This document shows positions 9,366-48,385 of a DNA stretch of 64,000 nucleotides, piece by piece. Every line of letters begins with the position of its first letter. Position 1 is the first letter of the stretch. This DNA is from Dehalococcoidia bacterium (GTDB lineage: Bacteria; Chloroflexota; Dehalococcoidia; UBA2979): contig CAXXDN010000001.1 of assembly GCA_963667465.2 (NCBI GenBank), positions 576,001 to 640,000 of the forward strand, read 5' to 3'. The position numbers were made by a program, and so were the translations under genes. Under the pieces are notes generated by a model. It did not search any database, was not told the origin of the DNA, and saw only the letters and a list, made by a program, of their open reading frames with translations.

Positions 9366-10694
9366 CTAGGCGATGTTCGCGAACATCGGGTCGTCCTCGA
9401 TCGAGTACTCGTAGGGCTTGAGGTCCTCGGGCGGGGTCGAGGCGAGGCTGATCGGCACGTCGACCTCGAAGGGGCTCTTGAGGTCGAGTTCCTCGGCCAT
9501 CTCGCGCATGGCGGGGATGACCTTCTCGCCGATCAATTCGATGTTGCGCATGTTGTCGCGGTGGCTGATGTGGCCGTCGGTGGCGTAGAAGCTGACGATG
9601 CCGGGCCGGGTCTGCTCGAGCACCTTGCGCAGCTGGTCGATCGCGTGGTCCGGGTCGCCCATGATCCAGGTCAGGTCGTCCAGGTGCTTCTGCAGCGTCG
9701 CGCCGGTGTCGGCGCCGCCGCCGGCGGAGCGGAGGCCCTTCGCGCCGGTGCGCTGGTTGTTGCGGGCCACGGCGCCGCGCCGCCGCGCGACCGCGGCCGG
9801 CGAGTCCGGCGCGCCCCAGAGGTAGCCCGAGGGCGAACTCCATACCGGGTGGCCGAGGCCGGTGAACTCGCCCGCCATCCACATGAACTCGCGCGCGTTG
9901 CGCATCGCGTGCTCCATCGTGTCCTGCACGTGGAAGTGGATGGTCTGGCCGAAGTTCCAGGTGCCGACCTCGTAGCCCTTCTCGGCGGCGACCTCCTTGT
10001 AGGTGCCCATGATCCGCTTCTGCGCCCGCTCGTCCGTGCCGAGGCCGATGTAGGGGTAGCGGTGGGCTGCCGCCCACTGCACGGTCTCGAGGCTGGAGGT
10101 GCCGGGCACCCAGATGCGCGGGTGCGGCTTCTGGACGGGCAGCGCCCACGGGTTGACGACGCGGAAGTGGTACTGGTCACCCTCCCAGCGGAACGGTCCG
10201 GGCTCGGTCCAGGTCTTGATGATCAGGTCGTGTGCTTCCTCGAGGCGGTCACGGTTGTAGGCGGGGTTTGCGTTCATCGCGAACTGCTCGGTGCCGCCGC
10301 CGCGGATCAGGCCGGGCACGAGGCGGCCCTGCGAGATCATGTCGATCATGCCGAGTTCCTCGGCGGTCGCGACGGGGTTGTCGCGCAGCGGGAGGGGTAC
10401 GCCGAGCAGGACGATCTTCACGTTGTTGGTGACCGCCGCGAGGATCGAGGCCCAGATCTGGATCTGCGGCTGCATGCAGAACGGCGCGTTGTGGTGCTCG
10501 TTGAGCATGATGCCGTCGAAGCCGACCTCGTCGACGAGTTGGTACTCGGCGAGGCGGTCCTGGTAGATCTGGCTGCCCGCGTCGGAGTCGTAGAACTCGT
10601 TGGAGAAGCGGAGCACGGTCAGGCCGTCGCGCTTGCGGGCCTCCTCCTCCGGGTAGGCGGACATCGGCTGCTCGGTGAAGTACATGATGAACAT
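9366..10694 (-). CDS. LLM-class flavin-dependent monooxygenase
   Basis: GFDGIMLNEHH, AEELGMIDMISQGRL, PVQKPHPRIW; start MFIMYFTEQ. Confidence 0.9.
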   Translation of the reverse strand: MFIMYFTEQPMSAYPEEEARKRDGLTVLRFSNEFYDSDAGSQIYQDRLAEYQLVDEVGFDGIMLNEHHNAPFCMQPQIQIWASILAAVTNNVKIVLLGVPLPLRDNPVATAEELGMIDMISQGRLVPGLIRGGGTEQFAMNANPAYNRDRLEEAHDLIIKTWTEPGPFRWEGDQYHFRVVNPWALPVQKPHPRIWVPGTSSLETVQWAAAHRYPYIGLGTDERAQKRIMGTYKEVAAEKGYEVGTWNFGQTIHFHVQDTMEHAMRNAREFMWMAGEFTGLGHPVWSSPSGYLWGAPDSPAAVARRRGAVARNNQRTGAKGLRSAGGGADTGATLQKHLDDLTWIMGDPDHAIDQLRKVLEQTRPGIVSFYATDGHISHRDNMRNIELIGEKVIPAMREMAEELDLKSPFEVDVPISLASTPPEDLKPYEYSIEDDPMFANIA

Positions 10695-10882
10695 CGTCGG
10701 ACCCCGTTCGGTGTTCGCCCGCGCCGCCCGCCGGGCCGCGGACCAGGCGCCCGCGCGCCGCTCCGGCGCATCCGGGGGAGCATACCAGCACATCGCCTTC
10801 CGATCGGCGACTGTTGAGCGGACGAGGCGGTGGAGCGTCCCTCGCGCGGTACCCTGTGCGTGGATGCGATTCGGGGTGCGGT

Positions 10883-11140
10883 GTGGCGAGCGTCTGGCAG
10901 CGGTTGCGTCGAGCCGTTGCCGACCGCTTCGTGGGCTTCCACACCGCTTACCTCAACTTCCGCAACTACGATGCGCCGCTGGCGGTGAAGTGGCGGCTCC
11001 TCTGGCGCAACAACTGGATCAAGGCGCGCACCTTTTCGCTGTGCTGCGGCAACCTCGGCGAACCCGGCTGCTGACGGGACTTCGAGGAGCCCCGTGAGGG
11101 CTCGGAAGACCATCACCACGAGCACCCGCACCACCACTAG
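10883..11140 (+). CDS. Putative small selenoprotein, paralog 1 (CCGNLGEPGC-U-RDFEEPREGSEDHHHEHPHHH); in-frame TGA at 11072-11074
   Basis: GTG start after GGGGTG. The TGA follows a Cys and the frame stays open 21 codons to TAG 11138. SECIS-like hairpin 12 nt downstream. Same layout in paralog 2. Confidence 0.75.
11080..11108 (+). promoter_or_regulatory. Candidate bacterial SECIS element 1
   Basis: Upper stem GAGCCC-CGTGA-GGGCTC (11087-11103), lower stem CTTC/GAAG, G-containing apical loop, no U-tract. Confidence 0.72.
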
Positions 11141-11169
11141 CGGCGGGTTCGAGGCGCTACCCTGTAGCG

Positions 11170-11205
11170 GCGAGCGGCGGACCGGAGGCGAGCGGCGGAC
11201 CGGAG
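11170..11205. repeat. 18-bp tandem duplication that duplicates the GGAGG ribosome-binding site of paralog 2
   Basis: GCGAGCGGCGGACCGGAG x2. Confidence 0.85.
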
Positions 11206-11214
11206 GTGAGCGTG

Positions 11215-11469
11215 GTGAATCCCTGGCAGTGGCTGCGCGGCCTCGTCCTCGGCACTGTGCGGAGCTGGCGCACGACCTACCTCAACTTCCGTGACTACGA
11301 CGCGCCGCTCCTGGTCAAGGTCCGGCTCTTCGCCCGCAACAAGTGGACCATGGCGCGCACGCTCTCGCTGTGTTGCGGCAACCACGGCGAGCCCGGTTGC
11401 TGAAACGACTCCGGTGAGCCCCGTGAGGGCTCGGAGCACCACCACCACGACCACCCGCACGCGCATTAG
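11215..11469 (+). CDS. Putative small selenoprotein, paralog 2 (CCGNHGEPGC-U-NDSGEPREGSEHHHHDHPHAH); in-frame TGA at 11401-11403
   Basis: GGAGGT SD before GTG (11212 or 11215). TGA after Cys, then 21 open codons to TAG 11467. Identical hairpin at the same spacing as paralog 1. Confidence 0.75.
11409..11436 (+). promoter_or_regulatory. Candidate bacterial SECIS element 2
   Basis: Upper stem GAGCCC-CGTGA-GGGCTC (11416-11432), lower stem CTCC/GGAG. Confidence 0.72.
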
Positions 11470-11540
11470 CCGGCGTAGCCCGCCGCCCCCGGACGAGCGC
11501 GCCGCTCGACGGTCCGAGGCATCCGACTCATCCGCACCCC

Positions 11541-11593
11541 CTGGATTCCGGCTTTCGCCGGAATGACGGGACGGGGCGAGCCCGGAATGACGG
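11541..11593 (-). repeat. CGTCATTCC-tagged REP-like palindromes (one full, one partial)
   Basis: Reverse complement reads CGTCATTCCGGCGAAAGCCGGAATCCAG, plus a second CCGTCATTCCGGGCTCGC. Confidence 0.75.
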
Positions 11594-11656
11594 TTCTGTG
11601 GAGGTATCGAGCGGGGAGCGAGGGCCGGAGGATGCCGAACGCCCTCGAGAGTCGGG

Positions 11657-11790
11657 TGCGCCCTTGATGGTTCCGGGGGGCGTGGGGGCTTCGCCCCCAC
11701 AGAAAGAAAGTCCGAGGGTGGGTGGGCGGGGCCGAGCGGCGCGGAGCGCGTGCTCGCCCGGGATGGGGTGTGGGGGGCGCAGCCCTCCAC
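11657..11790. repeat. Dispersed ~130-bp GC-hairpin element, copy 2
   Basis: Collinear similarity to 5133-5266; GGGGGC-TTC-GCCCCC hairpin. Confidence 0.75.
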
Positions 11791-11959
11791 AGCAGACCGC
11801 CGTCGTCGTCGCTGGCCGCGCGGCACCCCCTCACCCCTACCCTCTCGGCAAGGGGAGTAGGGTGCCGGATCGCTCTCGCGGGCCCCGCCGTGTGGCACCG
11901 GCGGGCGGCGTCGTGTAGCGTCCGCCCGCGCCCGATCGCGCGCATCGAGGGGGTACGGG

Positions 11960-13045
11960 ATGAAAGCAGCAGTCTTCCACGGCGTGAACCAGCCGCTCAC
12001 CATCGAGGACATCGACGTCGACGAGCCGCGCGACTACGAGGTGCTGGTGCGCACCGCGGCCGCGGGCGTCTGCCACTCCGAGCTGCACATGATCGAAGGC
12101 CACTCGCCTGTGCCCCCGCCCTCCGTGCTCGGCCACGAGTCCGCAGGCGTCGTCGAGCGCGTCGGCAGCCGCGTGACCTACGTCCAGCCGGGCGACCACG
12201 TGATCGCCCGCGGCACCTTCTGCGGCCACTGCGAGATGTGCCTGACCGGGCACCTCAACGTCTGCACGAACCGTCCCGGCCGCGCCCCGGACGACGCCCC
12301 GGTGATGTCCTGGAACGGTGAGCGCCTCAACCAGTGGGGCTCCAACATCTTCGGCTGGTCGGAGCAGATGCTGCTGCACGAGAACGGCGTGGTGAAGATC
12401 TCGCCGGAGATGCCGCTCGACGCCGCCGCGCTGCTCGGCTGCGCCGTGATCACCGGCTTCGGCGCGGTGATGCGTACCGCGCAGGTCGAGGCCGGCAGCT
12501 CGATCGCGGTCTTTGGCTGCGGCGGCATCGGCCTGTCGGCGATCCAGGGCGGCGCCGTCTCCGGCTGCCAGCGCGTGATCGCCGTCGATCTGCTCGACTC
12601 CAAGCTCGAGGTCGCGCGCGAGTTCGGCGCGACCCACACCGTGAACGGATCGACCGAGGACCCCGTCGCCGCGATCCGCGAGATCGCGGACGGCGAGGGC
12701 GTGCACTACTCGTTCGACGCGATCGGCCTGGCGAGCGTGGCGATGCAGGCGCTCGACTGCCTGCGCCCGCAGGGCACCGCGACGCTGATCGGCGTGATTC
12801 CCGAGGAGACGCCGCTCAACTTCGGCTGGCGGCGGCTGAGCGGCGAAAAGCGGATCCAGGGCTGCATGATGGGCTCGAACCGCTTCCGCATGGACCTGCC
12901 GATGCTCGTGGACCTCTACATGCAGGGCCGGCTCAAGCTCGACGAGATGATCACCACCCGCGGCTCGCTCGAGGACGTCAACGACTTCCTGGAGATCATG
13001 AAGGGCGGCGCCGTCACCCGGCAGGTGATGATGATGGACTCGTAG
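11960..13045 (+). CDS. Zn-dependent alcohol dehydrogenase (MDR family)
   Basis: GVCHSE, GHES, CGHCEMC..C structural Zn site, GCGGIG. Confidence 0.93.
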   Translation: MKAAVFHGVNQPLTIEDIDVDEPRDYEVLVRTAAAGVCHSELHMIEGHSPVPPPSVLGHESAGVVERVGSRVTYVQPGDHVIARGTFCGHCEMCLTGHLNVCTNRPGRAPDDAPVMSWNGERLNQWGSNIFGWSEQMLLHENGVVKISPEMPLDAAALLGCAVITGFGAVMRTAQVEAGSSIAVFGCGGIGLSAIQGGAVSGCQRVIAVDLLDSKLEVAREFGATHTVNGSTEDPVAAIREIADGEGVHYSFDAIGLASVAMQALDCLRPQGTATLIGVIPEETPLNFGWRRLSGEKRIQGCMMGSNRFRMDLPMLVDLYMQGRLKLDEMITTRGSLEDVNDFLEIMKGGAVTRQVMMMDS

Positions 13046-28071: not shown

Positions 28072-29271
28072 CTAGTCCGAAGACGCCGCCGCCGCGCCCT
28101 CCGCGGGCTCGGCGGCAGGTGGTTCGTCCGGCGGCTCGCCGGATGATTCGAGGCCGAAGTGGCGGGCGGCGTGGGACTGGGCGAGGGCAGCGTCCGGGTC
28201 CAGTCCACGGAGACGGCTGTCGGCGTACCAGAAGAGCTCCCGCAGCAGCGCCGTGAGCGGCACGATTACCAGCAGCCCGATGAAGCCGAAGACTGCGCCG
28301 GCAGCGACCAGCAGCAGGATGATGATCGCGGGGTGCAGGTCCACCGCCTGGCTCTGGATGCGCGGCACCAGCAGGTTGTTCTCCAACTGCTGCACCATCA
28401 CGAAGAGCAGCGCTACCCACAGGATCTTCTCCGGGTCCCCGCTTGCCGCCGCCATCAGCAGCGCCGGCAGCGCCCCGATCCATGGCCCGATGATCGGGAT
28501 CAACTCCGTGATGCCCGCGAAGATCGCGAGCGCGATCGATAGCTCCACGTCGATCAGCGTGAGCCCGATGAATGTCAGCACGCCGACCACCGCGCCCAGG
28601 ATGAGTTGCCCGCGCAGGTAGCGGCCGAGCAGGGCGTCGGCAATGCGAACGCTGTTGAAGAGGTCGGGCCGCGCGATGGCCGGCACCGCGGCTCCGAAGT
28701 TGTCCTCGAAGCGGTGGCGGTCACGCAGGGCGTAGAACAGCCAGAAGGGGACGATCGCGAAGCCGAACAGCACCGCGAGCGTCCTGGTCAGAACCGAGAA
28801 CGAGTCCGTCGTGTGGCTCGCGAGCTCGACGCCGATCCGGTCCGCGTTCTCCGCGATGGTCGTGTCGATGCGTTCGCGCACGTTGTCCGGGACGCGCTCG
28901 CGGTACTGGTCGAGCCAGGAGTTGATCTGGTCCTGCGCGCGCTGCCGCAGATCGGGGAACGAGTCGATGAACTCGGTGGCCTGATCGATCGCGACGGGCG
29001 CCACCAGCAGGCCGAGCCCGATCAGGATCGCGAGGATCACGAGGTACACGAGCAGGACGGCGAGGCCCCGCGAGATGACGTTCCTCTCCGGTGTGCCGCC
29101 CGGCAGGAACGAGGCGAGCGAGGCGATGTGGTCCACCGCCGGCGTCAGCACGTAGGCGAGGAGCCCGCCGACCGCGAACGGGAAGAGCGCCCAGCGCGCG
29201 CTCCACGCAATCCAGAGCACCACGCCTACCATCAGCAGCCAGAGCGCAACCCGCACCCGGGGTCTGGTCAT
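28072..29271 (-). CDS. AI-2E family transporter
   Basis: LAYVLTPAV, YLRGQL, ELIPIIGPWIG, QQLENNLLVPRI, LHP; start could be 29286. Confidence 0.92.
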   Translation of the reverse strand: MTRPRVRVALWLLMVGVVLWIAWSARWALFPFAVGGLLAYVLTPAVDHIASLASFLPGGTPERNVISRGLAVLLVYLVILAILIGLGLLVAPVAIDQATEFIDSFPDLRQRAQDQINSWLDQYRERVPDNVRERIDTTIAENADRIGVELASHTTDSFSVLTRTLAVLFGFAIVPFWLFYALRDRHRFEDNFGAAVPAIARPDLFNSVRIADALLGRYLRGQLILGAVVGVLTFIGLTLIDVELSIALAIFAGITELIPIIGPWIGALPALLMAAASGDPEKILWVALLFVMVQQLENNLLVPRIQSQAVDLHPAIIILLLVAAGAVFGFIGLLVIVPLTALLRELFWYADSRLRGLDPDAALAQSHAARHFGLESSGEPPDEPPAAEPAEGAAAASSD

Positions 29272-29464
29272 GACGTGCTCACTCACCCTCGTGCGTCGCT
29301 GGCCCGGCACGGACCGCCGGTCCGTTCGCCCATTGTGCCTGATACGCGCGGCGCAGGGAGACGCTCCAGTGTTCGCGACCATTGGCTCGCCATTGACATC
29401 TCGTGATGCGCGCAAGACGATAGCCGTGGCTGGGCCCCCCGGGGCCCGGTCACGAGGGAACGCG

Positions 29465-29893
29465 ATGGTCTCCAGGCAAACGCTCGAGCGACGAATCGCC
29501 GACAGCGGACGCCGCCTTACCGAACCGCGTCGCCAACTGATCGAGGCGATGCGCAACCTTGGCGACCACTTCACCGCCGACCAGGTCGTGCAGGAAGCTC
29601 CCGGCGTCGGTCGCGCAACCGTGTTCCGGACGATGCGGCTGCTGCAGGAAGTCGGCGTGCTCTGCCAGGTCGTGCTCGATGACGGCGCCGTCGGCTACCG
29701 GCTCACCGACAACGCGCGCCACCACCACCACCTGATCTGCTCCCAGTGCGGCGCCACCGACGATTTCGCGAGCGCCGGTATCGAGGACCAACTCGCCGAG
29801 CTGGGCCGTCAGAGCGGCTTCGACATCCACGGCCACCGGCTCGAGATCTACGGCGTCTGCGCCGCCTGCAACGAGGAGCTCGGCTGCCACTGA
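29465..29893 (+). CDS. Fur-family regulator, probably Zur
   Basis: RLTEPR, RATVFRT, HHHHLICSQCG, LEIYGVCAAC; adjacent to a metal ABC operon. Confidence 0.9.
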   Translation: MVSRQTLERRIADSGRRLTEPRRQLIEAMRNLGDHFTADQVVQEAPGVGRATVFRTMRLLQEVGVLCQVVLDDGAVGYRLTDNARHHHHLICSQCGATDDFASAGIEDQLAELGRQSGFDIHGHRLEIYGVCAACNEELGCH

Positions 29894-29930
29894 CGTGACT
29901 GCCGTAAGCCTGGGCGTCCACCCTCCAGAC

Positions 29931-30038
29931 TGATATCCCGGGCTGATACTGATATCCGGTATCTTGCGCGTCTTGCTGATACGGGGTATCGTGCCGCGGA
30001 TCAGCTGAGACGGGGTATCAGGATGATACCGGGTATCA
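29931..30038 (+). promoter_or_regulatory. Array of four 15-bp palindromic operators (TGATAC-nnn-GTATCA) overlapping a sigma70-like promoter
   Basis: Boxes at 29950, 29977, 30006, 30024; half-site at 29931; TTGCGC(29964)-17bp-TATCGT(29987). Confidence 0.75.
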
Positions 30039-30051
30039 GAAGAGGGTTGTG

Positions 30052-31284
30052 ATGCGTTACCTGTTCCCGCTGCGAGCGTTCTGGACGGCGCTCCTTCTCG
30101 TGCTCGCGCTCGCCGTTGCGGCAGCGTGCACCAGCGATGATGACGATGACGGCGACGGCGCTGCCGGCGGCGAGAGCATGCAGGTGGCCACCGCAGTGGC
30201 CACCCCGGCCGAACCCCTGCAGGTGGTCGCCTCGACCGGCATTATCGCCCACTTCGCCGAGCAGATCGCCGGCGACAACGCAGACGTCGTGTCCGTGATC
30301 CCGCCGGGCGCGGACGCGCACAGCTTCAGCGCCTCCACCACCGACATCCGCAACATCACGGCCGCCGACCTGGTGATCGTCAACGGCTACAACCTCGAGG
30401 AGGGCGCCCTCGCGACCATCTTCGAGCACCTGCCCGAGGACACCCACCTCGTGATCGCCGCCGCGGGGATCTCCCCGCTCGAGGGCGGACACCACGAGGA
30501 GGAGGAAGGCCACGGCGACGAGGACGAAGAGGGCGACCACGGCGACGAGGACGAAGAGGGCGAGGACCACGGCGACGAGGACGAAGAGGGCGAGGACCAC
30601 GGCGACGAGGACGAAGACGGCGACCACGGCGACGAGGACGAAGAGGGCGAGGACCACGGCGACGAGGACGAAGAGGGCGAGGACCACGGCGACGAGGACG
30701 AAGAGGGCGACCACCACGACGAAGAGATCGAGGTCGACGCGGAGCACGAGCTTGCCGTCGCCGATGGCGACCCGCACATGTGGCTCACCGTCTCGAACGC
30801 GATGGTCTACGTGCGCAACATCACGGACGGTCTGGTCGCGGCCGACCCGGCCAACGCGGCCGCCTACCGCGAGCGCGAAGCGGCCTACCTCGGCGAGCTG
30901 CAGGCGCTCGACGAGGAGGTCCGGGCGGCCATCTCCGGTATCCCGCAGGAACGCCGCGTGCTGATCGTCTACCACGACGCGTTCCAGTACTTCGCTGCCG
31001 AGTACGGGCTCGAGCTGGCCGCCGCCGTGCTGCCGGCCAGCCCCTCGCAACAGGCAAGCGCGGCGGCCGTCGCCGAGATCATCGATATCGTCGGCGATCG
31101 CGAGGTCGGCGCGGTGTACCGTGAGCCGCAGTTCGCCGCGGCCGCCCTCGATGCGATCGCCGGGGAGGCGGGCGTGCGTGTGCTGACGCTCTACACGGGC
31201 GCCTTCACGGACGAGGTCGACAGCTACGTCGAGTTGATGCGTGAGAACGCGAAGGCTCTGGTCGACGGGCTCGGCGGAGGGTAA
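30052..31284 (+). CDS. znuA: Zn/Mn ABC transporter substrate-binding lipoprotein with a His/acidic loop
   Basis: AAAC lipobox, DAHSF, NGYNLE, DPHMW, YHDAFQYF. Confidence 0.9.
   Translation: MRYLFPLRAFWTALLLVLALAVAAACTSDDDDDGDGAAGGESMQVATAVATPAEPLQVVASTGIIAHFAEQIAGDNADVVSVIPPGADAHSFSASTTDIRNITAADLVIVNGYNLEEGALATIFEHLPEDTHLVIAAAGISPLEGGHHEEEEGHGDEDEEGDHGDEDEEGEDHGDEDEEGEDHGDEDEDGDHGDEDEEGEDHGDEDEEGEDHGDEDEEGDHHDEEIEVDAEHELAVADGDPHMWLTVSNAMVYVRNITDGLVAADPANAAAYREREAAYLGELQALDEEVRAAISGIPQERRVLIVYHDAFQYFAAEYGLELAAAVLPASPSQQASAAAVAEIIDIVGDREVGAVYREPQFAAAALDAIAGEAGVRVLTLYTGAFTDEVDSYVELMRENAKALVDGLGGG
30511..30714 (+). repeat. In-frame 27/30-bp tandem repeat, HGDEDEEG(E)D x7
   Basis: CACGGCGACGAGGACGAAGAGGGC(GAG)GAC units. 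Confidence 0.92.
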
Positions 31285-31312
31285 CGTGCGCGGGCGGGGA
31301 ACGGAGCGACCG

Positions 31313-32242
31313 ATGACGTCTCGCCCCGAGCACGCGCACCATGGACACGACGCCCACGGGCCCGTCGGGCATGAGGATCCGACGCACATCCACGACGCCG
31401 TAGAGCTCGACGGCGCGGGCCATCGGGCCGCGCGCGCGAGGCTGGCGCCGGGACACATGCACGGCCCGCTCGCCCTCGAGGTCAAGGGCCTCTGGGCCGG
31501 CTACCCCGGCAAGCCTCCCGCGCTCGAGGACGTCAGCTTCGTTGTCCCCGAGGGCGAGATGGTCGGTCTCGTCGGACCGAACGGGGCCGGCAAGTCGACG
31601 CTGTTCAAGTCGATTCTCGGCGTCGTGCGGCCGTTGCTCGGCGAGGTGCGCGTCTTCGGGCGCCCCGTCTCGGAGACGCGGGCGGATGTCGCCTATACCC
31701 CGCAGGTCGAGGAGGTCGACTGGGAGTTCCCGGTCAGCGTCCGCGACGTGGTGCTGATGGGCTGCTGGCGCGGGAGCAGCCCGTTCCGCCGCTGGTCGCG
31801 GCAGGACCGCGAGGCCACGGAGGACGCGCTTGAGCGGGTCCAGCTCTCCGATCTCGCCAACCGCCAGGTCGGCGAGCTTTCGGGCGGCCAGCGCCGCCGC
31901 GTGCTGATCGCCCGCTCGATTGCGCGCGGCGCTCGGCTGCTTCTGCTCGACGAGCCCTTCGCCGGCCTTGATGCCGCCGTCGAGCACGACCTGCTCGCGA
32001 TCCTCGACGAGCTCACCCACGAGGGCTGCAGCATCCTGATCGCCACGCACGATCTCGCGTGCGTGGCCAGCGCCTGCGACGAGGCGTGCTGCCTCAACCG
32101 CCGCGTGCAGGGCTACGGCCCGCCCGCCGACGTGCTCACGGAGGACGTGCTCTCGCGCACCTTCGAGCGCGCGCTCGTCCCGGTCGGCGCGGAACGGGAG
32201 TTCATTGTTCCGGAGGGCAACGGGAGCGCCGGAGCGAGCTGA
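31313..32242 (+). CDS. znuC: Metal ABC transporter ATPase with a His-rich N-terminus
   Basis: GPNGAGKS, LSGGQRRR, LLLDEP, ATHD. Confidence 0.9.
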   Translation: MTSRPEHAHHGHDAHGPVGHEDPTHIHDAVELDGAGHRAARARLAPGHMHGPLALEVKGLWAGYPGKPPALEDVSFVVPEGEMVGLVGPNGAGKSTLFKSILGVVRPLLGEVRVFGRPVSETRADVAYTPQVEEVDWEFPVSVRDVVLMGCWRGSSPFRRWSRQDREATEDALERVQLSDLANRQVGELSGGQRRRVLIARSIARGARLLLLDEPFAGLDAAVEHDLLAILDELTHEGCSILIATHDLACVASACDEACCLNRRVQGYGPPADVLTEDVLSRTFERALVPVGAEREFIVPEGNGSAGAS

Positions 32243-32254
32243 GGGCGGTCGAAG

Positions 32255-33106
32255 GTGGAGCTTGCGGAATGGCTGATTGAGCCGTACGAGTACGAGTTCA
32301 TGCAGCGCGCGTTGGCCTCGCTGCTGATCGTCAGCCTGGTCGGCTCGGTGGTCGGGACGTTCGTCGTGCACAAGGGGCTGGCGGCCTCGGGCAGCGGGCT
32401 CGCGCACGCGACGCTGGCGGGCGTCGCGATCGCCTTCGTCAACGGGGCGAGCGTGGCGCTCGGCGCGCTCGCCGCGGCCGTCGCGACGGCGCTCGGGATC
32501 GGCTACGTACGCCGCACCTCGCGCGTCAGCTACGACACGGCGATCGCGATCTTCTTCGTCTCCGCCTTCTCGCTCGGCATCCTCGTGATCTCGCGCCGCT
32601 CGAGCTACACGCCGGACCTGGTGTCCTTCGTATTCGGCGACATCCTCGGCGTCTCCCGGGCCGACCTGCTGGGCGAAGTGATCCTGGCCGTCGTCGTGGT
32701 TGGCTTCGTGCTCGCCTTCTACCGCGAGCTGGTAATGGTCGCCTACGACCCAGCGATGGCGGCGGCGGCCGGGGTGCGGACGGCGTTCTTCGAGTTCTCG
32801 CTGCTGGTGCTGATCGCCCTCGCGGTGGTGGTGGCATTGCAGGCGATCGGCATCGTGCTGGTCACGGCGACGCTGATCATCCCGCCGGCGACGGCGAGCC
32901 TGCTGTTCCGGCGGATTCCGCGGATCATGGCGGCGAGCTTCCTGATCGGGGTGGCCAGCTCGGTGTTCGGGTTGTACGCCTCGTTCCACGCGGGCGTCGC
33001 CGCCAGTCCCGCAGTCGTGCTCTCTGCCACGGCCGCCTTCGCCGTCGTCCTCGTCGCCACCTCGCTGCGGCGTACGCGCCTCCCGGCTGCCGCGACCGCC
33101 GAGTAG
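32255..33106 (+). CDS. znuB: Metal ABC transporter permease
   Basis: YEFMQRAL, LAHATLAG, FGDILGV, YDP..A, IIPPATA. Confidence 0.9.
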   Translation: MELAEWLIEPYEYEFMQRALASLLIVSLVGSVVGTFVVHKGLAASGSGLAHATLAGVAIAFVNGASVALGALAAAVATALGIGYVRRTSRVSYDTAIAIFFVSAFSLGILVISRRSSYTPDLVSFVFGDILGVSRADLLGEVILAVVVVGFVLAFYRELVMVAYDPAMAAAAGVRTAFFEFSLLVLIALAVVVALQAIGIVLVTATLIIPPATASLLFRRIPRIMAASFLIGVASSVFGLYASFHAGVAASPAVVLSATAAFAVVLVATSLRRTRLPAAATAE

Positions 33107-41764: not shown

Positions 41765-42445
41765 GTGGTCCAACGGGTCGTGCAGCGAGCGCGCGATGAA
41801 GTGGCGCGAATCCTCTACGAGCGCGGCGACCGCAGTGTTGCCGAACTGGCGCTCGAGCTGGGCGTCTCGCAGGGCTCGGTCCGCCGTCACCTCGACATCA
41901 TGGTCGCCGAGGGCCTGCTCGAGACGACGCTCGTGCGGCAGCCGCGCGGGCGGCCCGTCACCCGCTACTCGCTCAGCGAGGCGGGCGAGGATCGCTCCGG
42001 CGCGGACCACTACACGAGCCTGATCGGGCGGCTGCTGCCCGCCCTCGCCAGCCTCGGCGAGGACGAGGTTTCCGGCCGCGACGGCGAGGCGATTCTGGAG
42101 CAGGTCTACAGCCGCGTCGCCGAGGACATCGCGCGCGAGCGCGGCGGCGCCGTGCGCAGCACGGAGCTGGGACCGCGCCTGGAGGAGGTCGTCGCCGCGC
42201 TCAGCGCCGAGGGCATCCTCACCGAGGTCCGGGACGAGGGCGAAGTCTACCGGCTGAGCAACGTCGGCTGCCCCTGCCCCTCGACCACGAGCGAGACGAA
42301 CGCGGCCTGCGAGGCAGACCGCTACAGCATCGAGCTGCTCGTCGGCAGGCCCGTCGAGCAGGTGGCAACGATCGCGGGAGGCGGAGCCTGCTGCGAGTAC
42401 CAGGTGCGCAAGCCGGCTGAGCCGGCCGGCGTCGTAGTGCAATGA
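41765..42445 (+). CDS. sufR: SufR-like HTH transcriptional regulator
   Basis: ELGVSQGSVRRHL, RGRP...Y.L, C-terminal CPC..C..CC; first gene of the suf operon. Confidence 0.82.
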   Translation: MVQRVVQRARDEVARILYERGDRSVAELALELGVSQGSVRRHLDIMVAEGLLETTLVRQPRGRPVTRYSLSEAGEDRSGADHYTSLIGRLLPALASLGEDEVSGRDGEAILEQVYSRVAEDIARERGGAVRSTELGPRLEEVVAALSAEGILTEVRDEGEVYRLSNVGCPCPSTTSETNAACEADRYSIELLVGRPVEQVATIAGGGACCEYQVRKPAEPAGVVVQ

Positions 42446-43266
42446 GTGGAGCACCAGTGAGCGAAACCGTGAGCGAACCGATCCTCGAGGTACGCGATCT
42501 GCACGTCAGCATCGCCGATGCACCCGACGTGCAGATCGTCAAGGGCGTCAACCTGACCGTGCGCGCCGGCGAGGTGCACGCGTTAATGGGGCCCAACGGC
42601 TCCGGCAAGAGCACGCTCGCCAACGCGATCGCCGGCAGCCCCGCCTATGTGGTGGACTCCGGCGAGGTGCGCTACCGCGGCGAGGACGTCACCACGCTGA
42701 CGGCGGACGCGCGCGGGCGCCTCGGCATGTTCCTCTCGTTCCAGTACCCGACGCCGATTCCCGGCGTGACGATGGTCAACCTGCTGCGCATGGCGATTAA
42801 GTCGCGGCGTGGCGAGGAGCCCTCGGCGCGGGAGTTCCTGGCCGAGCTGCGCGAGACGCTGCAGACGCTGCGCATGGACGAGGACTTCGCCCGCCGCTAC
42901 GTCAACGACGGCTTCTCCGGCGGCGAGAAGAAGCGCGCCGAGATCCTGCAACTGGGGATGCTCAAGCCGGAGCTCGCGATCCTGGACGAAACGGACTCCG
43001 GGCTTGACGTGGACGCGCTGCGCACCGTCGCCGAGGGCGTCAACACGCTGCACCACCCGGGGATGGGCATCCTGCTGATCACGCACTACCAGCGGATCCT
43101 CAACTACATCACGCCGGACCACGTGCATGTGCTGTTCGACGGGCGCATCGTGCGCTCCGGCGGCCCGCAGCTCGCGCACGAGATCGAGACAGGCGGATAC
43201 GACCCAATTCTCGAGGAGATCGGTCTCAAGGAGATCGGCGCGGAGACGGCGGCCGCCGCCTCCTGA
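42442..43266 (+). CDS. sufC: Fe-S cluster assembly ATPase SufC
   Basis: [37 protein letters not shown]. Confidence 0.96.
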
Positions 43267-43306
43267 ACGTCGATCGGAAACCAGGCTCACACGAGGGAGC
43301 AAGTCC

Positions 43307-44725
43307 ATGGCCACCGTGAATCCGGCAGCGCGCGACGCAGTCGGCGAGTACCAGTGGGGCTTCCATGACGATGAAGCGCCGCTCTTCCGCGCCGACAAGG
43401 GCCTGACCGAGGAGGTCGTGCGCAAGATCTCGGAGTTCAAGGACGAACCCGAGTGGATGCGCGAGTTCCGCCTCGAATCGCTGCGCACCTTCCTCGAGAA
43501 GGACGACCCGACGTGGGCCGGCAGCCCCGAACTGCTCGAGGCGATCGACTTCGACGACATCACCTACTACGTGCGCGCCACCGATACGGACGCCAGCAAC
43601 TGGGACGACGTGCCGGAGTACATCAAGGACACCTTCGACAAGCTCGGCATCCCGGAGGCGGAGCGCCAGTTCCTCGCCGGGGCGGGCGCGCAGTACGACT
43701 CGGAGGTCGTCTACCACAACATCCGCGAAGATCTCGCGAAGCAGGGCGTCGTCTTCCTCGGCATGGACCAGGGTCTCGAGGAATACGAGGAGCTGGTGCG
43801 CGAGTACTTCGGGACGGTGGTGCCGCCGGGGGACAACCGCTACTCGGCGCTGAACAGCGCGGTCTGGTCAGGCGGCTCGTTCATCTACGTGCCGCCGGGT
43901 GTCCAGGTGGACGTCCCGCTGCAGGCCTACTTCCGTATCAACACGGAGAACATGGGCCAGTTCGAGCGCACGCTGATCATCGCGGACGAGGGCAGCTACG
44001 TGCACTACGTCGAGGGCTGCACCGCGCCGATCTACAGCTCCGACTCGCTGCACTCGGCAGTCGTCGAGATCATCGTCAAGAAGGACGCGCGGGTCCGCTA
44101 CACGACCATCCAGAACTGGTCGAACAACGTCTACAACCTGGTGACCAAGCGCGCGGCCGCCTACGAGAACGCCGTCATGGAGTGGGTCGACGGCAACATC
44201 GGCTCCAAGCTGACGATGAAGTACCCGTCGGTCTACCTGATGGAGCCGGGCGCGCACGGCGAGATCCTCTCGCTCGCCTTCGCCGGCGACGGACAGCACC
44301 AGGACGCGGGCGGCAAGATCGTCCACGTGGCGCCGCACACTTCCTCGGCGATCGTCTCCAAGTCCGTCTCGCGCGGCAGCGGGCGCACCTCCTACCGTGG
44401 CCTGCTCAAGGTCCACGAGGGCGCCGAGGACTCCAGCTCCACCGTGCGCTGCGACGCGCTGCTGCTCGACGAGCACTCGCGCTCCGACACCTACCCGACG
44501 ATGGAGGTCGACGAGGAGCAGGTGACGATCGGGCACGAGGCCTCCGTTTCCAAGCTCGGCGACGACCAGCTCTTCTACCTGATGTCGCGAGGCATCACGG
44601 AGGAAGAGGCCTCCAAGATGGTCGTCAACGGCTTCGTCGAGCCGATCGTCAAGGAGCTCCCGATGGAGTACGCGATCGAGCTGAACCGGCTGATCGAGCT
44701 ACAGATGGAAGGCTCCGTCGGCTAG
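43307..44725 (+). CDS. sufB: Fe-S cluster assembly protein SufB
   Basis: [31 protein letters not shown]. Confidence 0.97.
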
Positions 44726-44753
44726 CGCTCCTCGCGAGCTGCAAGGGATCACG

Positions 44754-45986
44754 ATGAGCGAACCCACAACCCCGGTCGCCCCGGCCCACGCGGAGCAGGC
44801 CGTGCTCGCCGCCGCCGTACAGCGCGGCGAGCCGGAGTGGCTGCTGGAACGCCGCGCCGAGGCCGCGCGTGCCTTCGCCGCGCTGCCGCTGCCCACACCG
44901 GCGCTGCGCCCCTGGCGCTACACCGACGTGACCCGGCTCGACCTCGCTGCGTTCGCCCCGGCGGAGACGCCGATCGCCATCGAGGGCGGCACTGACGAGG
45001 GCGGCGCCTACGCCGGGACGCTGGCCGGCGCCCTCGAGGGCCGCCGCGCGCTCGTCGCCGATCGCCTCGGCGCGCTCGTCCCGGCGACCGAGGGCAAGTT
45101 CATCGCCGCCAACGCCGCGCTCTGGAGCGGCGGCGCGCTCGTGCACGCGCCCGCCGGCCACGCCTTCGCGGAGCCCGTCGTCGTGACCGTCGATGCGAGC
45201 GACCTCGCGGATGCGGCAGTGCACCCGCGGCTGCTGATCGAGGCCGGCGAGCAGGCCGAGGTCACGGTTGTGCTGCGCACTCGCTCCGGCGACGCTCCGC
45301 TGCTGGCGGCGGGCGTGATCGAGATCGCGGTCGCGCAGGCCGCGCGCGTGCGACTGTTGATCGACGACCGCTGGGGGGCGGCGACACAGGACTTCACGAC
45401 GATCCGCGCGCGCCTCGGACGCGACGCCGACCTGCGGGTCGCCTCGCTTGCCATCGGCGCCGCGATCCTCAAGCAGACCGTCGAGGTCACGCTCGAGGGT
45501 GAGGGCGCAAACTCCTCGATCCGCGCGGTCGCCCTCGGCGACGAGGACCAACACTTCGACTTCGTGACACTGCAGGACCACGTCGGGCCGCGCTCGACCT
45601 CTGATGTCGAGGTGAAGGCCGCCCTCGCCGGGGCCTCGCGCTCGATCTACTACGGCATCACCCGTGTCGAGGAAGGAGCGGCGGGGTCCGAGGCGAACCA
45701 GCAGAACCGCAACCTGCTGCTCTCCGGGGACTCCAAGGCGGACTCCGACCCGGTCCTCGAGATCCTCACTGCCGACGTGATCCGCTGCGGCCACGCCGCG
45801 ACGGTCGGGCCGGTCGACCAGGACGCGCTGTTCTACCTGCAGAGCCGCGGGCTCGACCGCCGCACGGCACTGCAGTTGCTGGTCAGCGGCTTCTTCCAGT
45901 CCGTCGCCCGCGACCTCGCGGTCGAGGGCATGGCCGACGATCTGGAGCGCACGGTCTTCGCCAAGCTGGCGCGGGCCGTGCTCTGA
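44754..45986 (+). CDS. sufD: Fe-S cluster assembly protein SufD
   Basis: WRYTD, NRNLLLS, P.LEI...DV..CGHAATVG, LFYLQSRG. Confidence 0.92.
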   Translation: MSEPTTPVAPAHAEQAVLAAAVQRGEPEWLLERRAEAARAFAALPLPTPALRPWRYTDVTRLDLAAFAPAETPIAIEGGTDEGGAYAGTLAGALEGRRALVADRLGALVPATEGKFIAANAALWSGGALVHAPAGHAFAEPVVVTVDASDLADAAVHPRLLIEAGEQAEVTVVLRTRSGDAPLLAAGVIEIAVAQAARVRLLIDDRWGAATQDFTTIRARLGRDADLRVASLAIGAAILKQTVEVTLEGEGANSSIRAVALGDEDQHFDFVTLQDHVGPRSTSDVEVKAALAGASRSIYYGITRVEEGAAGSEANQQNRNLLLSGDSKADSDPVLEILTADVIRCGHAATVGPVDQDALFYLQSRGLDRRTALQLLVSGFFQSVARDLAVEGMADDLERTVFAKLARAVL

Positions 45987-45996
45987 TGGCGCTCGC

Positions 45997-46317
45997 GTGA
46001 GCCCCGAACGCGTTGCCGCCGCCGCCGACGTCCCCGAGGGCGAGGTCCGCGTCGTCGAGTGTGGTGGGCGTTCACTGGCCCTCAGCAACATCGACGGCGA
46101 GCTGTTCGCGATCGACAACGTCTGCACGCACGACGGCGGCCCGCTGGGCGAGGGACGACTGCGCCAGGGGCGCGTGATCTGCCCGCGCCACGGCGCCGCC
46201 TTCGACGCGCGCACGGGCCGCGCGCTCACGCTCCCCGCCGTCCGGGGCGTCAGCGCCTACCACGTCAACGTCGAGGACGGCGACGCCTACGTCGAGTGCG
46301 AGGAGGCGTCCGCGTGA
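45997..46317 (+). CDS. Rieske-type ferredoxin
   Basis: CTH...CPRH. Confidence 0.93.
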   Translation: MSPERVAAAADVPEGEVRVVECGGRSLALSNIDGELFAIDNVCTHDGGPLGEGRLRQGRVICPRHGAAFDARTGRALTLPAVRGVSAYHVNVEDGDAYVECEEASA

Positions 46318-47564
46318 ATTCCGACGGCGGCTTCGACATCGAGCGCATCCGGCGCGACTTCCCGATCCTCAAGCGCGAGGTCAACGGCCATCCGCTCGTC
46401 TACCTCGACAACGCCGCGACCTCGCACCGGCCCGTCCAGGTGATGGCCGAGATCACGCGCTTCTACCGCGACACCAATTCCAACATCCACCGCGGCGTCC
46501 ACACCCTGTCCGTCGAGGCGACCGAACGCTTCGAGGCCGTGCGCGAGCGGATGCGCGCCTTCCTCGGCGCGCCCGACGCCTCCGAGATCATCTTCACGCG
46601 CAACACGACCGAGTCGATCAACCTCGTCGCGCACGCCTGGGGCCGCACCTTCCTCGAGGCGGGGGACGAGGTGCTGATCAGCGAGATCGAGCACCACTCC
46701 AACATCGTGCCCTGGCAGCTGCTGCGCGACGCGCGCGGCATCGTGCTGCGCCACATCCCGATGCTCCCCGACGGCACGCTGGACCTCGCCGAGGCGCGGC
46801 GGCTGATCGGCCCGCGCACGCGGCTGCTCTCGATCACGCTGATGTCGAACGCCCTCGGAACGATCGTCCCGGTGGCCGAGCTGGCGGAGCTGGCGCGGGC
46901 GCAGGGCGCGCGCGTGCTGGTGGACGCGGCGCAGGCGGCGCCGCACATGCCGATCGACGTCGGCGAGCTGGGCGCGGACTTCCTCGCCTGCTCCGCGCAC
47001 AAGATGCTCGGCCCCACCGGCGTCGGCGTGCTCTGGGGCCGCCGCGAGCTGCTGGAGGAGATGCCGCCCTTCCTCGGCGGCGGCGACATGATCGCCAGCG
47101 TCAGCCTCGAGGAGTCGACCTGGAACGAGCTGCCCCACAAGTTCGAGGCGGGCACCCCGAACATCGCCGGCGTGATCGGCTTCGGCGCCGCGCTCGACTA
47201 CCTCGAGGCGGTCGGCATGGACGCGATCCGCAGCCACGAGGTCGACCTCACGACGTACGCGCTGGACCGGTTGATCGACGTGCCCGGCGTCACGCTCTAC
47301 GGGCCGCTCGACCCCGAGCTGCGCGGCGGCGTGGTCTCGTTCGGCCTCGATGGCGTGCATCCGCATGACATCGGGCAGGTGCTGGACGGCGAGGGTGTCG
47401 CGATCCGCGCCGGGCACCACTGCGCGCAGCCCGTGATGCGGCGGCTCGACATTGCCGCTACCGCGCGCGCCTCGTTCTATCTGTACAACACCCGCGAGGA
47501 GGTGGACGCGTTGGAGGCGGCGGTGCGCGAGACGTCGGACTTCTTTGGAGGCTTTGGTGGCTGA
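46314..47564 (+). CDS. sufS: Cysteine desulfurase SufS
   Basis: YLDNAAT, EHHSNIVPW, SAHKMLGP, RAGHHCA. Confidence 0.96.
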   Translation: MNSDGGFDIERIRRDFPILKREVNGHPLVYLDNAATSHRPVQVMAEITRFYRDTNSNIHRGVHTLSVEATERFEAVRERMRAFLGAPDASEIIFTRNTTESINLVAHAWGRTFLEAGDEVLISEIEHHSNIVPWQLLRDARGIVLRHIPMLPDGTLDLAEARRLIGPRTRLLSITLMSNALGTIVPVAELAELARAQGARVLVDAAQAAPHMPIDVGELGADFLACSAHKMLGPTGVGVLWGRRELLEEMPPFLGGGDMIASVSLEESTWNELPHKFEAGTPNIAGVIGFGAALDYLEAVGMDAIRSHEVDLTTYALDRLIDVPGVTLYGPLDPELRGGVVSFGLDGVHPHDIGQVLDGEGVAIRAGHHCAQPVMRRLDIAATARASFYLYNTREEVDALEAAVRETSDFFGGFGG

Positions 47565-48045
47565 CCTCGACGATCTGTACCGCGAGATCCTGCTCGACCA
47601 TTACCGCCAGCCGCGCAATCGTGGCCCGCTCGAGGCCGCGAACGCCAGCGCCGAGGGCTCCAACCCGCTCTGCGGCGACGAGATCACGCTGGAACTGCAA
47701 CTCGACGCCGACGGCCGCATCGCCGACGTGGCGTTCAGCGGCCAGGGCTGCTCGATCTCGCAGGCCTCGAGCTCGCTGATGACGGAGCACGTCAAGGGCC
47801 GCAGCAGCGGCGAGGCGTCAACCGCGATCGACGCGTTCCAGGCGATGATGATCGACGGCGAGGAGGCCGCGATCGACCTCGGCGACATCGAGGCGCTGGC
47901 CGGGGTACGCAAGTTCCCGATGCGGGTAAAGTGTGCCTCGCTTGCCTGGAAGACGCTGGAGCTCGCGCTCGCGCAGCATGACCGCGCCGGCGACGCGCCT
48001 CGCGCCACCGTCACGACCGACGAAAGGAGCACTCCCAATGGCTGA
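47557..48045 (+). CDS. sufU: SufU (NifU-like) protein
   Basis: LYREILLDHY, NPLCGD, GCSISQAS, RVKCA. Confidence 0.94.
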   Translation: MADLDDLYREILLDHYRQPRNRGPLEAANASAEGSNPLCGDEITLELQLDADGRIADVAFSGQGCSISQASSSLMTEHVKGRSSGEASTAIDAFQAMMIDGEEAAIDLGDIEALAGVRKFPMRVKCASLAWKTLELALAQHDRAGDAPRATVTTDERSTPNG

Positions 48046-48385
48046 AGCCGCAGCCGACGCCCCCGAGGCAGCCGCCGAACGGCCGAGCGAGGAGCAGCTC
48101 TGGGAGGTGCTCCACCAGATCGAGGATCCCGAGCTGCGGATGGGAATCGCTGAGCTGGGCCTCATCTACTACGTGAACATCGACGACGAGGGCCTCGTCA
48201 CCATCGACATGACGCTGACCAGCCCGGCCTGCCCCGTGGGGCCGATGCTGCAGGGGCAGGCCTACCACCTGCTCACGCAGATGGACGGCGTCGAGGACGT
48301 CGAGGTGAACCTGGTCTGGGATCCGCCCTGGGATCCGAAGACGATGGCCTCCGAAGAGGTGCGGATGCAGCTCGGCATCTGGTAG
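48038..48385 (+). CDS. sufT: DUF59/SufT metal-sulfur cluster biosynthesis protein
   Basis: DPEL...ELGLIY, MTLTSPACP, VWDPPW. Confidence 0.9.
   Translation: MAEAAADAPEAAAERPSEEQLWEVLHQIEDPELRMGIAELGLIYYVNIDDEGLVTIDMTLTSPACPVGPMLQGQAYHLLTQMDGVEDVEVNLVWDPPWDPKTMASEEVRMQLGIW

Follow-up and report, generated by a model that had tools for sequence, protein, structure and literature searches.

Hairpins after in-frame UGA codons in twin genes of a Dehalococcoidia bacterium: probable SECIS elements of a small selenoprotein family

In a 64,000-nucleotide stretch of contig CAXXDN010000001.1 from a Dehalococcoidia bacterium (positions 576,001 to 640,000 of the forward strand; hereafter the window), two small neighboring genes each carry an in-frame UGA codon, followed at a fixed distance by the same hairpin. 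This arrangement raises the question of whether both codons are read as selenocysteine (Sec) and whether the hairpin is the signal for it, that is, a selenocysteine insertion sequence (SECIS). As judged from sequence comparison, the hairpins are very probably bacterial SECIS elements located within the coding region of small selenoprotein genes, with both UGAs read as Sec. Recoding of both UGAs, which an earlier note made from this DNA sequence alone had suspected, is favored by the conservation of the TGA, the open histidine-rich frame behind it, homologues with Cys at the same place, covariation in the stem, a near-invariant GU in the loop, and agreement with the consensus model of bacterial SECIS elements (bSECIS). 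The gene family to which the two genes belong is widespread in uncultured Chloroflexota and Actinomycetota. Binding by SelB, insertion of Sec, the presence of a Sec machinery in the source genome and the function of the protein are what we infer beyond this.

The twin genes and their hairpins

The two genes, termed paralogues A and B, and their component parts are located in the window as follows.

10883..11140, plus strand: paralogue A, predicted small selenoprotein gene, M-ASVWQRL...SLCCGNLGEPGC-U-RDFEEPREGSEDHHHEHPHHH when TGA is translated as U; TAG stop at 11138-11140
11072..11074, plus strand: proposed Sec codon of paralogue A (UGA, in frame), directly after GEPGC
11087..11103, plus strand: putative SECIS hairpin A; stem 11087-11092/11098-11103, loop CGUGA at 11093-11097, spacer 11075-11086
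11212..11469, plus strand: paralogue B, M-VNPWQWL...SLCCGNHGEPGC-U-NDSGEPREGSEHHHHDHPHAH when TGA is translated as U; TAG stop at 11467-11469
11401..11403, plus strand: proposed Sec codon of paralogue B (UGA, in frame)
11416..11432, plus strand: putative SECIS hairpin B; stem 11416-11421/11427-11432, loop CGUGA at 11422-11426, spacer 11404-11415
10935..11470, plus strand: tandem duplication holding both genes, 2 copies of 207 nt with 79% identity, 329 nt apart

Both genes have the layout ...CCGN[LH]GEPGC-U-linker-His-rich tail and end with TAG, the frame running 21 codons beyond the UGA to this stop in each copy. Their starts are predictions: the GTG at 10883 was picked by homology to database homologues of 63 aa, and position 11212 was derived from the orthologue P0003 together with the GGAGG at 11202-11206. 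Over the 150 nt upstream, the paralogues are 74% identical, and their third codon positions match in 33/50 cases. The same tandem pair is also present in five of the related loci described below (L001-L005).

The arrangement reported by the earlier note, a TGA followed by 12 nt and then by the same 17-nt hairpin in both copies, was found at these positions in the sequence. The hairpin, GAGCCCCGTGAGGGCTC, has the form GAGCCC-CGUGA-GGGCUC, and a search of both strands of the window for exact matches returned these two only. It lies within an identical run of 20 nt, GAGCCCCGTGAGGGCTCGGA, which is the longest stretch shared by the paralogues (the next longest has 14 nt), and the 12-nt spacers that precede it differ between the copies (CGGGACTTCGAG in A and AACGACTCCGGT in B), also in line with what had been described. 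Counted from the U of UGA, the GU of the loop occupies positions +23/+24 in both genes, corresponding to G11094 U11095 in A and G11423 U11424 in B.

In the mechanism that we propose, a ribosome nearing the in-frame UGA would encounter the hairpin 12 nt downstream, whose apical G23-U24 would be offered to the elongation factor SelB bearing Sec-tRNA(Sec) as well as GTP. The UGA in the A site would be decoded as selenocysteine, completing the C-terminal motif CCGN[LH]GEPGC-U; the hairpin would be melted by the ribosome and translated as a short linker (EPREGS in the window), and the His-rich tail would then be translated up to the TAG stop.

The minimum free energy (MFE) of folding is -9.8 kcal/mol for the hairpin alone and -16.8 and -15.5 kcal/mol over 41 nt, with z-scores for the latter of -2.08 and -1.56. 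Folding of the UGA with the following 60 nt, a check that had been proposed for both copies, gave z-scores of -1.02 and +0.35 for the 63-nt folds. The window has a GC content of 71%, and a stem of at least 5 bp follows 264 of its 1107 TGA sites, while a hairpin of at least 6 bp at a spacer of 11-13 nt follows 62 of them. Sites that also have GU at +23/+24 in the loop number 3/1107, two of which are the copies in question; the third (minus strand, 19758) lies antisense to a gene with a Cache domain and was discarded. By themselves, the two window copies are only suggestive, and it is the comparative evidence that is decisive.

Conservation of the hairpin across the family

Relatives were sought by scanning one genome per species, a process in which 142 were found and 80 loci were kept; counts out of 86 copies refer to these 80 loci plus the window. 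According to the titles of their records, the kept loci belong to Dehalococcoidia, other Chloroflexota, Acidimicrobiia, other Actinomycetota and a few others. In 81/86 copies the UGA is followed, at a distance of 11-17 nt, by a perfectly paired stem of at least 5 bp, the spacer being 12 nt in 47 and 11 nt in 18. Among these 81 copies, the stems measure 5-8 bp and the loops 3-5 nt, the loop types being GUU (21), CGUGA (20), GUC (14), GGUC (10) and a few others. The loop contains GU in 79 of the 81, positioned at +23/+24 in 64 and at +26 in 11. In our alignments G23 is invariant and U24 nearly so, an invariance that in the alignment labeled A3 exists by construction, as A3 was picked for GU at 23/24.

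When all 86 copies were aligned with MAFFT, the parts of the upper helix were 91.4% and 80.5% paired. Covariation was assessed in a gap-free alignment of 59 distinct sequences that had been selected by their GU at 23/24 and not by pairing. Its 7-pair helix shows 87.7% of cells paired, compared with 76.3 ± 1.0% after shuffling, and a covariation score of 0.329, compared with 0.143, with 0/500 shuffles as high in either case, under a control that ignores relatedness among the sequences. Sliding the pairs by one to three columns lowers the scores. The exchanges are evident at individual positions: pair 17-31 occurs as AU (29), GC (12), CG (11) and GU (5), and pair 19-29 as CG (35), UA (12) and UG (11). 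Because the pair joins a second codon position (17) to a first one (31), compensatory changes at 17-31 alter two amino acids together (E..S, G..P, A..A). Explicit pair counts of this kind, and not RNAalifold, form the basis of our statements on pairing; RNAalifold with ribosum scoring predicts exactly the 7-bp hairpin, at -18.3.

These data bear directly on an alternative in which the UGA is recoded and the hairpin is a by-product, either of selection on the linker peptide or of gene conversion between tandem copies, rather than the recoding signal. Such an origin is compatible with the identical EPREGS encoded by both window copies, with the 329 nt between paralogues that could exchange sequence, and with the modest statistics of two copies alone. 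It becomes very unlikely once the family is considered. The earlier note had named as a refutation of the SECIS interpretation homologues that keep the EPREGS peptide and lose the stem, and we found the reverse: 65 copies encode 33 different hexapeptides at nt 16-33, EPREGS being present in 13/65, and the stem persists, built from 24 distinct inner 5-bp arm pairs; pairs 17-31 and 19-29 show double changes. L040, L048, L049 and L079 each have a copy whose stop codon lies within the loop, and the 3' arm beyond it, although untranslated, is still complementary; the variability of the peptide and the pairing of an untranslated arm are thus the opposite of the refuting outcome. Furthermore, both paralogues of L001-L005 have retained the 17-mer, or a version of it with a G-U wobble, despite diverged flanks. 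If the hairpins are SECIS elements, the family offers a clear case from nature in which a coding sequence is constrained more by RNA structure than by the protein.

The same four short-tail variants (L040:6139, L048:6139, L049:6097 and L079:6136) have open reading frames (ORFs) that stop 6-7 codons past the Sec position, at the UGA within the CGUGA loop, and the His-rich tail would therefore be dispensable in some Chloroflexota.

A lower stem below the hairpin had also been proposed, formed by CUUC/GAAG in one copy and CUCC/GGAG in the other. The complementarity stands, as these segments are pairable, albeit in registers that differ by a one-base bulge, whereas the lower stem as a selected feature was rejected. 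Across 84 distinct homologous sequences its register is paired in 31.5% of cells, and with the upper hairpin held fixed in 78 distinct sequences, pairing of the flanks had a mean z-score of +0.31, with 5.0 enclosing pairs against 4.95 with shuffled flanks, which is no better than chance.

Reading of the UGA codon and comparison with known SECIS elements

The codon right after GEPGC is TGA in 85/86 copies and TAA in one (L020), and a Cys codon occupies this place in 0/86; a further copy in L005, in which the motif reads GQPGC, also has TGA. Beyond the TGA, the frame is open for at least 12 residues in 82/86 copies, 73/86 tails contain at least three His, and His accounts for 24% of tail residues. 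Public protein records present a different picture of the same genes. A word-based search returned 30 homologues, 30/30 of them ending exactly at ...GEPGC, and a profile search against 1.84 billion representatives returned 424 proteins at E <= 0.001, of which the 150 best were classified. Among these 150 best matches, 141 end at the ...GC preceding TGA and 5 are truncated or aberrant; three (P0044, P0082 and P0093) have Cys in place of U and then read on into the His-rich tail, and one (P0045) was called with W at the TGA. The combination of Sec/Cys pairs with a conserved downstream frame is, at the level of sequence, the usual signature of a selenoprotein family.

Were the TGAs ordinary stop codons, the hairpin would be a 3' element of the RNA (for instance a terminator, a stabilizer or a repeated palindrome), and the His-rich frame would never be translated. 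Nearly all database records do show the protein as called up to GEPGC and no further, GC-rich hairpins are common after TGAs of the window (the 264 sites mentioned above), and the window contains no Sec machinery; even so, we consider this explanation highly improbable. The observation made earlier that a U-tract is missing and that the hairpin is not a terminator was reproduced: the sequence behind the stem, GGAAGACC or GGAGCACC, lacks the U-tract of an intrinsic (Rho-independent) terminator, and a scan of 10700-12000 gave 0 terminator-like sites. Ordinary termination is also difficult to reconcile with the open frames and His-rich tails, with the Cys-form homologues that read through into the same tail, with the restriction of the site to TGA or TAA and the complete lack of Cys codons there, and with a loop GU at the position that it has in Escherichia coli fdhF.

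A reading of UGA without Sec, through reassignment of TGA to Trp or Gly across the whole genome or through read-through that needs no SECIS, deserves next to no credence: the homologue P0045, called with W at the TGA, would favor it, but has a W near its end too, about where Actinomycetota tails stop at TGA, and was therefore probably called under a TGA = W table; TGA ends 14/43 Pfam-supported ORFs of the window; 42/86 family tails end at a second TGA, which is therefore still a stop in those genomes and speaks against a global reassignment; and homologues that read through have Cys as the equivalent residue, which is what usually corresponds to Sec.

The prototype of bacterial SECIS elements is that of fdhF, in which SelB reads G23/U24 and the U17 bulge in the 5' arm is important. 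In the E. coli K-12 sequence that we examined, the UGA is followed by an 11-nt spacer and the 17-nt hairpin GGUUGCAGGUCUGCACC, whose GGUC loop carries G23 and U24; the 17-nt stem-loop 11 nt after the UGA that the earlier note gives for fdhF agrees with this. The window hairpins resemble fdhF in being coding-region hairpins directly after the proposed Sec-UGA, in the 17-nt length of the apical stem-loop and in the equal distance of the loop G23/U24 from the UGA, and the GGUC loop also occurs in 10 family copies. They differ from it in the spacer (12 nt compared with 11), in a perfect 6-bp stem that lacks the bulged U17, and in the 5-nt CGUGA loop, most relatives having GUN triloops. Moreover, fdhF is not matched by the covariance model of the family at E <= 1.

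A broader comparison is provided by the bSECIS consensus, which the legend of Fig. 2 in PMC13188914 describes as a loop of 3-9 nt on a stem of 4-16 bp, a G at one of the first two loop positions with, as a rule, G or U behind it, a distance of 16-37 nt from UGA to loop, and an MFE <= -7.5 kcal/mol. Measured against these four properties as worded in that legend, the window hairpins fall within every range, with a 5-nt loop on a 6-bp stem, a loop beginning C-G-U, an 18-nt spacing and an MFE of -9.8 kcal/mol. Relative to this model (bSECISearch) we found no structural difference, the family being placed at its tight, short-spacing end with 16-22 nt from UGA to loop.

Several results count against the interpretation of the hairpins as SECIS elements and were weighed with the above. 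At the level of the window, the folding z-scores of both copies are modest, hairpins are frequent after TGA in sequence of this GC content, no tRNA gene, and hence no tRNA-Sec, is present, and none of the 50 window ORFs scanned is selA, selB or selD. An Rfam scan of 10500-12000 gave no match, the best candidates being unrelated families at 16-19 bits, far under their cut-offs; a passage in a preprint on Actinomarina describes bacterial SECIS elements as poorly represented in Rfam. The bulged U17 of fdhF is absent, and the family covariance model (R1, see below) matches neither E. coli fdhF nor any site outside the family. As for the alignments, apart from the relatedness that the shuffle control ignores, a slide of -1 still leaves 62% paired owing to minority copies whose 4-nt GGUC loop shifts the register, and RNAalifold with default scoring predicted no hairpin in either alignment (A2 and A3). 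Finally, the L020 copy has TAA at the Sec position. This copy (L020:6139, Pelotomaculum sp. UBA4789) still has the hairpin and an in-frame His-rich tail, and may represent a recent pseudogene, a truncated version of the gene or a mistake in the assembly.

Lineage, protein family and surroundings

The earlier note had further supposed that the hairpin might be the SECIS consensus of the lineage and might serve to uncover more selenoproteins. We built the covariance model R1 from 59 family sequences, with which hairpins A and B, both in the training set, score 46.6 and 42.7 bits. In the 64-kb window the model finds the two copies only, the next best hit having 16 bits and E = 0.16 and not being in frame. 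In 799 kb of related loci it again finds only family copies, 74/85 of them at E <= 1, missing the indel and short-tail variants. R1 was accordingly rejected as a finder of other selenoprotein genes; finding nothing outside the family, it therefore says nothing on a general SECIS of the lineage. The results support a putative SECIS of one gene family across several phyla, which is not demonstrably a lineage consensus. A scan of the window for in-frame TGAs joining coding-like frames yielded only the two described here, plus one ordinary adjacent gene pair.

A second type of candidate selenoprotein gene was encountered next to the family in two related loci.

L033:5077-5949: AhpC/TSA-fold gene with an in-frame TGA at W-U-A-[YF]-C, directly upstream of the small selenoprotein gene
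L062:1802-2662: AhpC/TSA-fold gene with an in-frame TGA at W-U-A-[YF]-C, directly upstream of the small selenoprotein gene

The W-U-A-[YF]-C protein of both loci matches the known Prx-like UxxC type. In its gene, the TGA is followed by 14 nt and then by GCAGCUC-GUG/GUU-GAGCUGC, with GU at +25/+26. This hairpin shares with that of the small genes a GC-rich stem, here of 7 bp, a GUG or GUU triloop and a location shortly after an in-frame UGA, and its loop triplet equals that of the neighboring family gene, GUG in L033 and GUU in L062. It differs in the 14-nt spacer and in its unrelated arms, and the comparison comprises two cases only, neither in the genome of the window. An unrelated structure in bona fide selenoprotein genes of the genome had been put forward earlier as a result that would refute the reading of the hairpin; in these two related genomes, the Prx-like UxxC gene instead uses the same kind of hairpin. 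The adjacency of the Prx-like gene, which is found in 2/81 sources only, may reflect an operon with a redox link or a coincidence.

Two further leads from the related loci were rejected: an apparent tRNA of 99 nt in L052 is not tRNA-Sec by Rfam, and the candidate L047:1918 is a spurious Arg-rich frame. In BSepDB (PMC13326102), metagenome-assembled genomes (MAGs) of Dehalococcoidia are listed among the most selenoprotein-rich bacteria, with 46-49 genes, and a passage of the Actinomarina preprint presents the Sec machinery as universal in that order of Acidimicrobiia.

Regarding the identity of the protein, neither window protein had a match in Pfam or NCBIfam at E <= 1, including KCU-star/DUF466, SaoC and MbdU, and no relatives in the Protein Data Bank (PDB) were found at E <= 1. 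Family scans of 53 members gave matches in 1-2 only, of a compositional, His-rich kind. A kinship with YbdD/DUF466 was discarded, as hhalign against E. coli YbdD gave a probability of 0.5% and no Pfam match was obtained. The family resembles SaoC, KCU-star/DUF466 (YbdD), SaoL and HgcA in having vicinal Cys-Sec near the C-terminus and in being truncated at the TGA in databases. It differs from these selenoproteins with CU/CC motifs in that no sequence relationship was found and in the addition, behind the Sec, of a His-rich tail with a length of about 18 residues. Section 29 of a bioRxiv preprint (10.1101/2022.07.06.499078) argues that CC and CU motifs bind heavy metals. The three Cys, one Sec and one His of CCGNHGEPGC-U, together with the His-rich tail, suggest metal binding or thiol/selenol redox chemistry.

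Gene neighborhoods were of no help in assigning a function. The largest shared neighbor cluster occurs in 19/81 loci, and the recurrent neighbors in the Acidimicrobiia subset resemble, by sequence reading without confirmation from family scans, undecaprenyl-diphosphate synthase, endonuclease IV and orotate phosphoribosyltransferase; these recurrent, housekeeping-like neighbors were taken as synteny and set aside as a functional link. Fusions were likewise dismissed: of the 2 longer matches, one is a 675-bp contig and the other a frameshifted ORF, and each is probably an artefact.

Taking the protein as a whole, we find it slightly more probable than its opposite that these genes represent a widespread family of micro-proteins that is undescribed and contains Sec almost obligately. 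Its members would consist of CCGNHGEPGC-U plus a His-rich tail, measure ~65-90 residues and, at 50% identity, fall into at least 424 clusters from Chloroflexota, Actinomycetota and further groups. They would probably act as a metal-binding or thiol/selenol redox factor, with a post-Sec linker shaped by the SECIS RNA rather than by the protein and dispensable in some lineages, where the gene stops inside the loop. The family was not recognized in Table 1 of the 2026 review that also gives the bSECIS consensus (PMC13188914), the part of that work compared here, which has 119 families, most with Pfam or NCBIfam models, none of which matched. We found no description of it in the literature searched; automated predictors may have detected it earlier. 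An uncharacterized selenoprotein family of 78 aa is mentioned without sequence in a part of the Actinomarina preprint.

The SECIS mechanism itself is textbook knowledge, the comparative case made for it here is unusually clean, and the hairpin marks a large and apparently unannotated family. A gene that public records almost always end at ...GEPGC would really be ~20 residues longer and encode a Cys-Sec dipeptide and a His-rich tail. In addition, the compact SECIS, with its stem of 6-8 bp and GU at +23/+24, could serve as a starting point when genomes of Dehalococcoidia and Acidimicrobiia are searched for selenoprotein genes.

Several minor features surround the twin genes. Between the paralogues, at 11169-11204, there is an exact 18-nt tandem duplication (GGCGAGCGGCGGACCGGA twice), the end of which is the GGAGG just 5' of the start of paralogue B. 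An out-of-frame ORF at 11094-11294 on the plus strand (MRARKTITT...) starts at a GTG within hairpin A and enters paralogue B, and the database protein P0005 bears the same artefactual N-terminal extension. Extensions of the P0005 type would be gene-calling errors that arise because the Sec codon is unrecognized. Downstream of paralogue B, the ~490 nt from 11470 to 11959, up to a zinc-type alcohol dehydrogenase gene, have no convincing ORF; they contain CCGGAATGACGG repeated twice and a Guanidine-III match that, at 18.6 bits, stays below the cut-off of 36 and is probably due to chance.

Elsewhere in the window, 29156-33106 and 42421-48385 hold a ZnuA/ABC/ABC-3 cluster for metal uptake together with a Fur-family regulator, and a SUF cluster for Fe-S assembly; no link between these clusters and the His-rich selenoprotein was established. 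In high-GC bacteria, TGA is usually the dominant stop codon. Among the 43 Pfam-supported ORFs of the window, TAG is the commonest (26), followed by TGA (14) and TAA (3), and the family copies of the Dehalococcoidia type all stop at TAG or TAA.

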